Below, piece by piece: positions 20,218-25,758 of a DNA stretch of 32,000 bases. The translations under genes were made by a program, and so were the position numbers. The notes under the pieces are model-generated. The model saw only the letters and a program-made list of their open reading frames with translations, was not told the DNA's origin and did no database searches. This DNA comes from Candidatus Harpocratesius repetitus (lineage in GTDB: Archaea; Asgardarchaeota; Lokiarchaeia; Sigyniarchaeales; Promethearchaeaceae), in NCBI GenBank assembly GCA_021498095.1, contig JAIZWK010000001.1, positions 3,660,001 through 3,692,000 on the forward strand, given 5' to 3'. Each line of letters opens with the position of its first letter. Positions within the stretch are counted from its first letter, which is position 1.

Positions 20218-20520
20218 TTATCCAAAAAGAGCACCAAGACCTGCTGGTTCTTCTGGTTTCTCTTCTTTCTTCTCTTCTTTCTTTTCTTCTTTCTTTTCTG
20301 CTGCTGGAGCAGCACCCGCTGCTGGAGCAGCCATTACTGGAGCCGCAGAAGCACTGGCAATTAATTCGTCAATGTCTTTTCCTTCTAATCCTGCCACAAG
20401 GGCCTTAATTTGATTTTTATCAGGAGTGACATTTGCAGCTTTTAACACTTTTTCGATGCTTGCTTCATCAATTGTTTTTTCAGCTTTGTGAAGCAATAAT
20501 GCAGCGTATACAGATTCCAT
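20218..20520 (-). CDS. rpl12: 50S ribosomal protein P1 (archaeal L12)
   Basis: [14 protein letters not shown]-terminus, Ala-rich hinge and [11 protein letters not shown] tail. AGGAG SD-like site upstream. Confidence 0.97.
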
Positions 20521-21577: not shown

Positions 21578-22306
21578 TCACCTTCTGCCTCCTTTCTGTG
21601 CTTCCTTAACCATTATTGGCTTTCCCATTGTTGTTTTTAAATAAATAGAACGAACATTATTATTTCCAACTGGTAATTGCCCTTCGATAAAATTAAGCAC
21701 AGATTTGATGTTATCCATCAATTCATCTTTTGATTGGGATTTCTTACCTACTTTTAGTTGCATCAAAAGTTGCTTTTTCATTGATATTTTCACGATGCGA
21801 TTCAATAAGGGTAAATAATTGCCCAAATCTTCATTTGGTCGAATCACACCAAAACCTTTGGGTTGGGGTCGAGGCATCTTTCCTTGTTGACCTAAAAAGC
21901 GAGCTAATACTCTAGCCAAATCGCGCATTAAATCGGCTCGAGCAACAAAATACTTAAATTTTTTAGCCACCTCTTTCTTTTCTTTTTTCGATTTCTTTTG
22001 TAATTCATTTAAATCGTTTTGGTTCAACACATGATAACCAGATTCCTTTAAATCCAACTCCATCTGATCTTTTACAATGAAGCAAACTTCATCTTTGGTC
22101 AAATTATTCGGGATAGGATGAGGTAATAAGATTTCATTATCAATTCGATTATTAGGGTTTTTAATATCAACATCGCGTATATTTATAATCAAATCAACAC
22201 TTTCATCAAATTTTCGAATTTTGTCAGGTTTACCATCCTTTTTAATGACCGAATTCTCAAGGGCCAATTCCAAGGCTTTTTGAACTTCTTTTTCACTAAT
22301 ATTCAT
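21578..22306 (-). CDS. rpl1: 50S ribosomal protein L1 (uL1)
   Basis: Motifs RKFDESVDLIINI, LARFLGQQGKMP and IYLKTTMG, and operon position. Confidence 0.96.
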   Translation of the reverse strand: MNISEKEVQKALELALENSVIKKDGKPDKIRKFDESVDLIINIRDVDIKNPNNRIDNEILLPHPIPNNLTKDEVCFIVKDQMELDLKESGYHVLNQNDLNELQKKSKKEKKEVAKKFKYFVARADLMRDLARVLARFLGQQGKMPRPQPKGFGVIRPNEDLGNYLPLLNRIVKISMKKQLLMQLKVGKKSQSKDELMDNIKSVLNFIEGQLPVGNNNVRSIYLKTTMGKPIMVKEAQKGGRR

Positions 22307-22310
22307 ATCT

Positions 22311-22808
22311 TTAAGCCTCCTCCGCCTTTATTTGGTCATCATAGGCACCTGCATCGATTTCCTTTAAAACATCCCGAGCAGTTTTCCCATCTATCTTAAT
22401 GCCACAAGAGTAAGCAGTCCCAATAATTGTTTTTGCTCGACTTTTCATATCTAAAGCATTTAAAGAATCTTCTTTCATTCGCGCAATTTTTAAAATAGCG
22501 CTGAAAGGTAAATCCCCTACGAAATTGGTGGTTGGTTCACCTGAACCCTTAGCGATGCCTAATTCTTTAAGTAAGAGTGCTGAAGCCATGGGCGTGCTAA
22601 CTTTAATTTCGAAACTTTTATCAACTGGATTCACCAAAATCGTGATTGGAACTTTAAGACCTTTAAAATCTTTAGTTTTTTCGTTGATTGCATCGACCAC
22701 GTCTTTAATAGGAACTCCAGTTGGACCAACAGCTGGACCAATAGGAGGACCTCCAGAAGCTTTTCCACCTTCAACGAGAGCCGAGACTTCAATCAATTTA
22801 TCTGCCAT
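22311..22808 (-). CDS. rpl11: 50S ribosomal protein L11 (uL11)
   Basis: VEGGKASGGPPIGPAVGP and IIGTAYSCGI. An in-frame TGA three codons upstream of the ATG fixes the start. Confidence 0.97.
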   Translation of the reverse strand: MADKLIEVSALVEGGKASGGPPIGPAVGPTGVPIKDVVDAINEKTKDFKGLKVPITILVNPVDKSFEIKVSTPMASALLLKELGIAKGSGEPTTNFVGDLPFSAILKIARMKEDSLNALDMKSRAKTIIGTAYSCGIKIDGKTARDVLKEIDAGAYDDQIKAEEA

Positions 22809-23035
22809 TGTGGGTCACGTTTGTTGTCAAACATGCTATCTCTTAGGAAGCAGATTAAAACGCAGAATAATTGATCTATCTAGTGTATGTGCAACTGCCA
22901 GTTTTCTTCTTTAAAGGGTTGAATTCTGTAAATTGCGAAATATTCGATAGATCTGCTGGTGATACTTTACTACAATGCGAGGAGTAATGAACAGAGCGTT
23001 CTCATCCACGGAAATGAGAGTAAAGCCGCACAATG
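22806..23035 (-). ncRNA. Putative structured cis-regulatory 5' leader RNA of the rpl11-rpl1-rpl10-rpl12 operon
   Basis: No convincing ORF in the minus-strand frames, about 40% GC by hand count against about 15-25% in other spacers, and five or more nested helices. The outer helix pairs over the rpl11 AUG. Confidence 0.6.
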
Positions 23036-23166
23036 TACGCGTCCTAATCTACAATAATTTCCATAAGAGATTAGTAAGATTTGAAAAGTGGGATAAAATT
23101 AAAAATTTGCGGTTAATCTATGAAAAGTGTTGATAAGTTCCTAAAAATTCTAAAATTTTAAGTAAA

Positions 23167-25758
23167 ATGAATTGCATTTTAACTCTAATGGTGCTCCATT
23201 CTCCAGATAAATTAATCAATCAGCATTGGATTAAAAATAATTTGGGACTTAAAGGAGAATGGGGTCAAAAATTATATAGACTTTTCTTCACAAATATTCA
23301 AAATCAGATTAGTGTAAAAATAGAAAAATCTTCTTTCAATCTTTGGAAAAACGAATTATGTAATCTTTATCCCATGAAAGAACTAACAATTGAATTATAT
23401 GCAAAACATTGTTTACTATTTTCGATATTATTTACATTTCTTGAACATGCACTTAATAATATGAATAAAAGCAAAGATCCAAAGGCAGAAATACCACATT
23501 ATTTTGATTATTTTGATTATTTTGAATGGATTGTCAAAAATCATCAAATTATTAAAGAACTTGCAGATCTTAAAGATATATTGACAAGATATCAAGTAGA
23601 ATCAGAAGATCTTTTTGCTGGAATCTATCAAGAATTAATTTTTAATTCAACCCGCCATATTCAAGGCGAATTTTATACTGATGAAGTTTTATGCGAGCAA
23701 ATGGTCGAATCATCATATAAAATGGGGATGAAAGTCTTAGATCCAACTTGTGGTTCTGGAACTTTCCTTCTGATAATTGCTCGAAAAATTTTGAAATCAT
23801 CAGTATCTTTTGAAGAGAAAGTACATTTCTTATCAAGTTTATACGGAATAGATCAGAATCCATTAGCATATTTGATGACACGAGTGAATTTGATGCTACT
23901 TGCATCTTCTTACGGAATTTATCAAGATATTTTCAATATATTTCATAAAGACAGTTTAGAAATTCATCCTAAAGATTTAAATAAACCATATTCAACCATC
24001 TCCCAGAGATCGTCGAATGTGCCAATAAAACAGCCAAAAAAAGAGCAGAATTTATTTGATTTATGGGATTTAATTATCGGTAATCCACCTTGGTTGGTGT
24101 TAAATGGCATACCTTCGAAAGAAAAACAATTGCAGATAAAAAAGCTTGGGAACGATTTAAACATCTTGTTAGGCGGAAGATTTGCCACCAGTACTGAAAT
24201 TACTACGATATTTTGGCAGAAAATGGTTAATGAATTTTTAAAACCCGGAGGTATCATTCATTTTGTTGTCCCTGCCAGTTTAGCTACAGGAAGTCAGCAT
24301 GCTCGATTTCGACAATTTTTAGGAGTTGAGAAGATTGAAATTTGGGATTTTACAGTGGATTTTTTCCGAATTCATAATATCTGTTTAAAGGCGCAAAAAT
24401 CACTTCATCCTTTGAATAAATTGATCAAAAAAACACATTGGATTAAATTTAGCTTTGATGAAGAACACAATTGTTTGAAAAAGATTTCAGAAGAAGATTA
24501 TCTTCCGATTATGATCGAATTTAAGAATAAATCGAATAAATCAAATAAATCTTTGCACGATACAAAGGATAATTCTTCTTATAGAACGTTACAAAAATGG
24601 ACCAAAAAAAAGCTGAATTCTGGACTCAGTTCGATTTCTAATGTAAATAATCAGGGATTTCATTCTTCTATCTTAGTTGGAAGGTTAATTTCCGAAAAAC
24701 AGTTGATATCCCTTTTCGGAAGACCTACACCACTTCAAATCTCCGAAAATCAACATTCTCCCTATAAGGTTCTTTTTCGACAAGGAGCATCACTAGTTCC
24801 GCGAAATCTTTTATTTGTTGAAATTAATGGAACTCAAATACAGCCTAATGTTGAAACTAATCCCCATTCAGTTTTTCTGGAGAAACATAAACATATTCCA
24901 TATACTATTTATCCAAACAAAGAAGCAGAAAATTCGAAGATTATCGAGATTTCGCCTGCGACATCAATTCAATCCAAAAAAGATAGTACGTGGAACTTTA
25001 ATGCATATACTTCAGTTCGTATTGAGAGTAAATATTTATTTCCAGTTGCAAAAAGCACAGGTTTGTTATCATTTTGCTATTTTCAACCTTATATGGCAGC
25101 ATTACCTATAGAGATATCAAGTAACTCAAAAGCTCATATCTTTTCTCAAGTGAGAATCCCAGATCAACCTTTAGCACGTAAGCATTTTACTCATTTAAGC
25201 AAAATATATACTCAAAATTTAAAATCAGGAGCAAAAATAACAGATTTATTTTCTCGATTAGATTATGGTCATGCTTTATCAGATCCAAAGCAGCTACAAC
25301 AACCAAAGATAGTATTTGCAGGGATCGGCAGTAATGTTAAGGCCGCCATTCTTCACAAGCCCGCTATTATCGATACTTCTCTTTATTTCTATATTCCTTC
25401 TTCAATAGATGAAGCTTACTACCTTATTGGGATTTTAAATTCAGATTTTATCATATCATTCGTACGATTATCGGGAAGCACCGGTGCAAATGGGAGTCTA
25501 CGAAATATACATAAAGCACCATTTAAGTTGCCAATCCCTATCTATAACTCTAACAATGATATTCATCGCCAAATTTCAGAAAAAGCGCGGAATATTGAAA
25601 AGAGCGTTTACTATTTTTTAGATGACACATTAAAAGCTGCACCTGAATTAAAAAATAAAATTAAAACATTACAAATACGTTTAATTAATAATCCTCATTA
25701 TCGACAACAAATAATGGATTTGACCCATTTTGTTCAAAAAGTATTAAATCTGCCTTAA
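23167..25758 (+). CDS. N6-adenine DNA methyltransferase with C-terminal target-recognition region (type IIG-like, no apparent nuclease domain)
   Basis: GEFYT, motif I VLDPTCGSGTFL, GIDQNPLA and motif IV IIGNPPW in gamma order. C-terminal YYLIGILNS...HKAPFKLPIP is TRD-like. Confidence 0.85.
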   Translation: MNCILTLMVLHSPDKLINQHWIKNNLGLKGEWGQKLYRLFFTNIQNQISVKIEKSSFNLWKNELCNLYPMKELTIELYAKHCLLFSILFTFLEHALNNMNKSKDPKAEIPHYFDYFDYFEWIVKNHQIIKELADLKDILTRYQVESEDLFAGIYQELIFNSTRHIQGEFYTDEVLCEQMVESSYKMGMKVLDPTCGSGTFLLIIARKILKSSVSFEEKVHFLSSLYGIDQNPLAYLMTRVNLMLLASSYGIYQDIFNIFHKDSLEIHPKDLNKPYSTISQRSSNVPIKQPKKEQNLFDLWDLIIGNPPWLVLNGIPSKEKQLQIKKLGNDLNILLGGRFATSTEITTIFWQKMVNEFLKPGGIIHFVVPASLATGSQHARFRQFLGVEKIEIWDFTVDFFRIHNICLKAQKSLHPLNKLIKKTHWIKFSFDEEHNCLKKISEEDYLPIMIEFKNKSNKSNKSLHDTKDNSSYRTLQKWTKKKLNSGLSSISNVNNQGFHSSILVGRLISEKQLISLFGRPTPLQISENQHSPYKVLFRQGASLVPRNLLFVEINGTQIQPNVETNPHSVFLEKHKHIPYTIYPNKEAENSKIIEISPATSIQSKKDSTWNFNAYTSVRIESKYLFPVAKSTGLLSFCYFQPYMAALPIEISSNSKAHIFSQVRIPDQPLARKHFTHLSKIYTQNLKSGAKITDLFSRLDYGHALSDPKQLQQPKIVFAGIGSNVKAAILHKPAIIDTSLYFYIPSSIDEAYYLIGILNSDFIISFVRLSGSTGANGSLRNIHKAPFKLPIPIYNSNNDIHRQISEKARNIEKSVYYFLDDTLKAAPELKNKIKTLQIRLINNPHYRQQIMDLTHFVQKVLNLP

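Follow-up and report, generated by a model that had tools for sequence, protein, structure and literature searches.

L1 operators are stems whose internal bulge contains an unpaired A besides a G-A pair, and whether they are placed at rplK or at rplA changes from lineage to lineage (PMC3616713; PMC10931766). They are situated in the mRNA which codes for uL1, as in the rplK leader of E. coli, in rpl1 of Methanococcus vannielii and M. jannaschii and at the dual sites of Geobacillus. Their two helices are joined by GA and G...A and flanked by G-C/C-G pairs, and the capping loops vary freely. The operator of Methanococcus reportedly lies inside rpl1 itself. Genes of stalk proteins can also be preceded by a long structured 5' leader, as in the bacterial L10(L12)4 leader (Rfam RF00557), which is placed far from the ribosome binding site (RBS) and acts by an indirect mechanism. 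Covarying motifs upstream of archaeal ribosomal-protein genes, the class to which the present leader also belongs, were proposed as candidates by Eckert and Weinberg 2020 (PMC7247131); that paper does not mention 'L11', 'uL11', 'uL1' or 'Asgard', and none of its Rfam models matches the leader described here. A literature search for an Asgard rpl11 or L1 leader found no report. The leader of the uL11-uL1-P0-P1 mRNA described below is likewise long, structured, far from the RBS and placed before stalk-protein genes. Unlike RF00557, it has no K-turn or H42-like motif and no Rfam match, and it comes from another domain of life. It is well supported as a genuine new ribosomal-protein leader family of one order of Lokiarchaeia-type Asgard archaea.

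The window, that is the whole stretch of 32,000 nt which was analysed, comes from the closed genome of Candidatus Harpocratesius repetitus (4.36 Mb, 31% GC). Its minus strand carries rpl11 (uL11, 22311-22808), rpl1 (uL1, 21578-22306), the gene of P0 (20608-21570) and the gene of the P1 protein (20218-20520), all identified by Pfam matches. The four genes share orientation; rpl11 opens the operon and is separated from rpl1 by 4 nt. As in the case of L1 operators, the transcript coding for uL1 carries the leader. The upstream neighbour is divergent, so the 358-nt spacer represents the rpl11 promoter together with the leader. This neighbour (23167-25758, plus strand) encodes a protein of 863 aa with N6 DNA methylase, Eco57I and TaqI-like specificity domains, a type IIG-like restriction-modification enzyme / DNA methyltransferase; the genes upstream of the leader vary among relatives. 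GC content of the leader (22809-23075) is 38.2%, against 13-27% in all other spacers of the window with one exception (58 nt, 34.5%) and 32.4% in coding sequence, in agreement with the raised GC content pointed out in an earlier note on this DNA. The same note had asked for a search of Rfam and had named a match to a decayed gene as grounds for refutation. All six frames of the leader region are closed and no open reading frame or decayed gene fills it, and a search of Rfam 15, both at the gathering threshold and with E values up to 10, gave no relevant match in the leader. The sole Rfam match of the window above the gathering threshold is a tRNA elsewhere in the window. The best match inside the leader was a miRNA model on the plus strand, which scored 22.5 bits against a threshold of 70 and was rejected as spurious.

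A BRE/TATA promoter block, CGCAAATTTTTAATTTTAT, is found on the minus strand at 23093-23111, with the TATA box at about 23105-23098. When 46 distinct relatives were aligned without gaps and anchored on ACUAA, the block AnAAAnTTTTTTAA was found at -35 to -22 from the A of ACUAA, and an AT-rich box at about -10 was likewise conserved. This A, at 23075 in the window, is invariant in 47 of the 48 distinct sequences and is always preceded by a pyrimidine. A BRE/TATA block at fixed distance from an invariant A is the geometry of archaeal promoters, and on the basis of this geometry and of the column counts the start of the RNA is predicted at 23075 on the minus strand. The 5' end of the leader RNA is thus most likely about 40 nt upstream of 23035, where the earlier note had placed it, and hairpin H1 (23074-23044) consequently fell outside the element drawn in that note.

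The promoter is followed, after about 22 nt, by a conserved core in the order H1, an NA dinucleotide (usually GA), H2, G and H3, all on the minus strand. H1 (23044-23074) is formed by CUAAUCU (23074-23068) and AGAUUAG (23050-23044), which enclose a loop at 23067-23051. It has seven pairs, and these are paired in 97.6% of cases among 48 distinct sequences; the three inner pairs covary between GC, UA and CG and include many G-U pairs. The junction dinucleotide (23042-23043) has G (38), U (6) or A (4) as its first base and A in 48 of 48 sequences as its second. In H2 (23026-23041), CGCG (23041-23038) pairs with UGCG (23030-23027) and an invariant G follows at 23026. The two outer pairs of H2, CG and GC, are near-invariant, while the third covaries (CG 22, UA 21 and AU 3 among the 48 sequences). 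The loops of H1 and H2 are free to vary in sequence and in length. Counted by alignment column, A4 is present in 47 of 48 sequences, and A44, G61 and the pair C5:G42 in all 48. The invariant unpaired or flanking positions are the A at +1, the C-G pair closing H1, the A of the junction, both outer pairs of H2 and the G that comes next; the A at 23075 doubles as an unpaired base of the junction.

H3 (22964-23026) follows H2 directly in most lineages examined; its partner is weak or unclear in the loci L033, L040, L048 and L053. In the window it is formed by GCUUUACU (23026-23019) and AGUAAAGU (22971-22964), which enclose a smaller stem, and it is identical with the second helix, P2, of the earlier note. 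H3 stems of differing sequence are found as GCUUUAU/AUAAAGU, as AUUCGAUU/AAUCGAAU and, in the family designated f3, as UUUCAAUAU/AUAUUGAAA, so that this helix of the earlier note proved to be conserved with compensatory changes between lineages. Within family f3 the sequence of H3 itself is strongly conserved.

To follow the core among relatives, the regions upstream of rpl11 were gathered from 30 genomes of four families of the window's order, and a regular-expression screen found the common module of BRE/TATA block and core in 28 of them. In a MAFFT alignment of 27 sequences, H1 and H2 were 94% paired, compared with 26-51% when the partners were slid, and the covariation score was 0.40 against at most 0.11. 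A model-built alignment of 48 distinct sequences gave a similar picture, with 93.5% of cells paired against 24-52% in the slid controls and a covariation score of 0.32 against at most 0.09. The collection of rpl11 upstream regions and the covariation analysis which the earlier note proposed are thus in favour of its suggestion of an undescribed structured Asgard leader of the L11-L1-P0-P1 operon, as is the missing Rfam match. By blastn, only the 5' 40 nt of the query (23060-23019) and a short distal block were conserved outside this genome, and in every case rpl11 followed 165-250 nt further downstream.

A covariance model of H1 and H2, named R1, was used to scan genomes for the core. In the genome of Harpocratesius the best match scored 58.7 bits and the next best 19 bits, indicating a single copy. 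Matches were present in 103 of 121 genomes of the class, all belonging to the window's order and usually once per genome, and the matched cores were always upstream of rpl11. Two weak matches outside the order in a phylum-wide sample belonged to another family, were not near rpl11 and were rejected as false. Five genomes from three other families of the class had no recognisable core, either by the model or by eye. Two families of the order carry divergent cores that were seen by eye, and in one of these, f4, H2 has the form GC..GC. The relatives include Candidatus Lokiarchaeum ossiferum and Promethearchaeum syntrophicum MK-D1, with an L11 identity of 78-81%; the leader was found in these two cultured members, which makes it directly testable. 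The distance from core to AUG is about 130-510 nt among relatives, whose leaders measure between 133 and about 510 nt. The longest leader was observed in G003 (genus g2), in which the core (L049:1858-1914) lies about 510 nt upstream of rpl11. The genome G099 has a second complete promoter and leader core (L106:220-420); the copy at rpl11 follows 5 kb downstream, after three ORFs. G090 has a decayed second core (L107; G090:C196:22908-22966) about 1 kb upstream, in which UUAG is changed to AUAG and the CG pair is lost. In G099, a member of family f3 (L106:5400-5620), and also in G027, G039, G040 and G041, the rpl11 reading frame is present in three-frame pieces, MSKTTKIIVKALVTGG / ASGGPPIGPAVGPTG / NIKDVVDAVNEKT, which are split by two inserts of about 30-36 nt with stop codons. 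The second insert folds as a hairpin, and these inserts may be mini-introns or recoding sites; rpl11 of the window is intact.

Apart from the local hairpins, the leader is predicted to form a second, long-range fold. When folded from 23075, the full leader has a minimum free energy (MFE) of -76.6 kcal/mol (z -5.6), and none of 200 shuffles was as good. This structure contains a 28-bp helix between 23074-23039, which includes H1, the GA junction and the 5' half of H2, and a distal strand at 22863-22836 (minus strand) that ends 27 nt before the AUG. The distal strand corresponds to the second stretch conserved in the relative G002. The antisense strand of the full leader reached z -1.6 only, which agrees with the sense orientation, towards rpl11, assigned in the earlier note. 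Among leaders of 17 lineages z ranged from -1.2 to -5.0 against shuffles, and the sense strand was the more stable one in 16 of 17. The energy of the long-range duplex is between -20.7 and -30.6 kcal/mol. The helix covaries as well, though MAFFT could not align it. H1 loops are not the same in all genera of family f3, and each has a distal strand of its own that matches it. When cognate and non-cognate pairings were compared for 47 leaders with the variable part of H1 only, the mean z was -2.5 and the cognate downstream leader was the best partner in 26 of 47. In genus g6 this test of the variable part was not significant and the helix was seen only if the invariant bases were counted in; in genus g13 no long-range helix was detectable.

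Because the long helix takes up the whole loop of H1 together with some of its stem, only one of the two folds can be present at a time, and an H-type pseudoknot that would combine H1 with the long helix was rejected on geometrical grounds. Since both folds show selection, both must form. The leader thus has two conserved folds that exclude each other, one made of local hairpins and one of a long closing helix, and predictions favour the long helix over the local fold by 3-14 kcal/mol. In the lineages inspected by eye the long helix ends 0-35 nt upstream of an SD-like sequence, and at this distance either fold could affect ribosome loading. Duplexes of the freed distal strand with the RBS region (-20 to +12) were no better than shuffles (mean z -0.1), and predicted RBS accessibility was slightly lower when H1 was forced (0.43 against 0.51). 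No T-run terminator is conserved after the core or after the distal strand, and among the leaders of family f3 such runs are inconsistent. In this genome and in G002, when H1 is forced, AUCUGC(U/C) of the distal strand can pair with GGCAG(A/G) of rpl11 codons 1-3 (window 22856-22850 with 22806-22800, 6-7 bp). With this pairing the scheme would resemble an attenuator of four strands; other genera did not show it.

The region between core and rpl11 is largely variable. The insert at 22873-22953 (minus strand), in which GAUCUAUC pairs with GAUAGAUC and an inner GCAAUU with AGUUGC, was called P3 in the earlier note. It folds in this genome, as does the hairpin CAUGUUUG-ACAA-CAAACGUG at 22816-22835 (minus strand) near the AUG, so the two structures of the earlier note stand as folds; as to their sequence, they are not conserved even within the genus. 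Family f3 leaders have a much shorter insert at the position of P3. The AUG-side hairpin is lineage-specific and abuts the distal strand, and its 3' arm includes part of the SD-like GUGA (22818-22815). An SD-like GUGAU, 6-12 nt before the AUG, is shared by members of family f1. The description of the element as far larger than known L1 operators is misleading, as the conserved core comprises about 60-100 nt, with a junction that resembles an L1 site, and the rest is variable filler.

The junction of the core was compared with the L1 stalk of the organism's own 23S rRNA. The leader junction reads UUAG/GA/CG..CG/G, together with the 5' A/CUAA, while the H76/H77 junction of the own 23S rRNA reads CUGG/GA/GC..GC/GACAAUGGAACA/CCAG, i.e. 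CUGG/GA/GC..GC/G..A/CCAG, and the Rfam archaeal LSU consensus at this place is GgugG/GA/Gcc..ggC/g..ACA/CcacC. The same bases flank the same two helices in leader and rRNA. As in L1 operators, a closing G-C pair, a GA and a GC-rich helix are present in the leader with G...A before the return strand, and the capping loops are free. A small invariant junction with free loops is what would be expected if only the junction were recognised. The first pair of H2 is C-G in most lineages, compared with G-C in the rRNA. The leader also lacks the return strand of the rRNA, whose place is taken on one side by the transcript's own 5' end and on the other by H3; the junction is thus split, with the first nucleotide of the transcript as its unpaired A and a third hairpin after its G. 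L1 operators are continuous irregular stem-loops, whereas here the 3' side of the bulge is cut by the 5' end and H3. We know of no L1 operator with a discontinuous 3' side of the junction. The leader also differs from them in being bistable, as the long helix can swallow the whole site. A K-turn, which would bind L7Ae, was also considered for this junction and rejected: it needs a bulge of three nucleotides followed by tandem G-A / A-G pairs on continuous strands, and here H1 passes into GA with no such bulge, opposite a discontinuous strand.

A contiguous L1-site pattern had no match anywhere in the operon mRNA. The same scan recovered the site in the own 23S rRNA and, as a positive control, the operator of a Methanomicrobia MAG (JAUVXU010000005.1), GUGAAG/GA/GGC..GCC/GCGAAA/CUUCAC, 24-60 nt inside rpl1 (L120:1104-1170). 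This pattern, a loose one, was not specific on its own, giving 4 matches against about 8 expected in control loci. An L1 operator is at or near the regulated RBS, and the leader core is 130-510 nt upstream of the AUG, which excludes direct steric repression. The likeness to an L1 site comprises about six junction nucleotides and the topology. Membership in the L1-operator family is not established, although the junction is L1-like, because the stem is not continuous and the site is not close to the RBS; the leader is regarded as a candidate L1 site. Among the possible ligands, uL1 probably ranks first. The strong conservation of H3 within family f3 is a feature that L1 binding would not explain.

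Taken as a whole, the leader is best read as the 5' leader of the uL11-uL1-P0-P1 mRNA and a new cis-acting RNA family with two states that would probably sense uL1, a reading of the aligned sequences to which we give a probability of about 0.4. In such a scheme the local fold (H1-GA-H2-G-H3) would form first during transcription and would be the protein-binding form, presenting a split look-alike of the 23S L1-stalk junction. Free uL1 would bind this fold co-transcriptionally, lock it and block the closing helix. When uL1 is not bound, the distal strand, which is made 100-200 nt later, would displace the local fold. The output is the most speculative step: the freed pyrimidine-rich distal strand might open the message to decay or to factors that terminate transcription or cleave the RNA, or access to the SD might be altered. 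By either route, less L11, L1, P0 and P1 would be made when L1 exceeds free rRNA. Archaeal termination differs from the bacterial one. A full kinetic switch, in which the L1-stalk mimic would use the triphosphate-bearing first A of the transcript as its bulged A, uL1 would be captured before the 20-28-bp helix forms and expression would be lowered by factor-dependent termination or decay, is less probable than this scheme as a whole.

The two exclusive covarying folds and the invariant unpaired bases of the junction would also fit a leader that senses something other than a ribosomal protein, namely a small molecule, an ion, temperature or a general RNA-binding factor, or a closing helix which merely stabilises the 5' end of the mRNA. 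In the case of such a sensor, the two folds would be its aptamer and its expression platform. Riboswitches of one class tend to regulate several genes in a pathway. The element described here is present in single copy and strictly tied to one ribosomal-protein operon, and its invariant part is small and matches an rRNA junction, which makes sensing of this kind rather unlikely. The ligand could instead be another product of the operon. As uL11, P0 and P1 are all encoded in it, the core might be an operator for the P0-(P1)n stalk complex or for uL11, mimicking the GTPase-associated centre (H42-H44) in the manner of the bacterial L10(L12)4 leader. Bacterial rplJ leaders are regulated by mimicry of the L10(L12)4 type (PMC10931766), and a core of three hairpins with a highly conserved H3 could make a larger binding surface for the stalk complex or uL11. 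However, when H42-H44 of the own 23S rRNA was aligned and compared by eye, no likeness to the core was found in junction, loops or K-turn. The conserved loop sequences of H43/H44 have no counterpart in the core, in which the loops of H1 and H2 vary freely, and an operator of this type appears unlikely, more so than sensing of a non-ribosomal signal.

The remaining two explanations are much less probable. The earlier note had drawn a single nested fold of 230 nt, in which a 7-bp closing helix, P1 (CAUUGUG/CACAAUG), sequesters the rpl11 start codon, and had suggested a riboswitch-like or IRES-like initiation element. All the helices listed in it are present in the sequence, the MFE structure of 22800-23040 (minus strand) does contain P1, P2, P3 and the AUG-side hairpin (z -2.13, against -0.60 on the plus strand), and the duplex energy of P1 is -8.8 kcal/mol. 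However, CAUUGUG is held in the loop region of H2, so that P1 overlaps this conserved hairpin, and once the leader is folded from its likely 5' end P1 is lost and the 28-bp helix takes its place. Complementarity between H2 and the start region was no better than in shuffles (31 leaders, mean z +0.4), and the nearest relative keeps only 3-4 of the P1 pairs. A CAU in the H2 loop (window 23031-23037) does recur in five genera of family f1, in the forms GUACAUUGU, GACCAUUGU, CACCAUAGU, AAGCAUAUR and ACUCAUAUA; H2 loops of family f3 are without it. This CAU could make a lineage-limited contact with the AUG, which is statistically unsupported. Nothing points to an IRES-like element, and start-codon sequestration by P1 as the function of the leader is very improbable. 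It is about as improbable, or slightly more so, that the conserved 5' module is a separate small ncRNA gene or an operator at the level of DNA. H1 does form an inverted repeat from +2 of the promoter, with the conserved half-sites ACTAA and TTAG. Against these two readings, the spacing of the half-sites varies between lineages, from 16 to 26 nt in the sequences checked by eye, and H1 includes many G-U pairs, two of its positions having UG in 8 and in 18 of the 48 sequences. Covariation of H2, H3 and the long-range helix is that of an RNA read from the minus strand only, and no conserved terminator-like T run follows the core.

At minimum, the leader provides a new RNA family for the annotation of Lokiarchaeia genomes. 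If uL1 is the ligand, the L1 operator would have moved once more: its site in methanogens is within rpl1, and here it would be at the very start of the rpl11 message. It would also tolerate a split topology. The leader would then bear on the origin of such mimics and on the coupling of RNA folding to expression without terminators of the bacterial style. Asgard archaea would, if the kinetic uL1 switch is true, have their first described ribosomal-protein feedback circuit, working through a permuted L1 operator.
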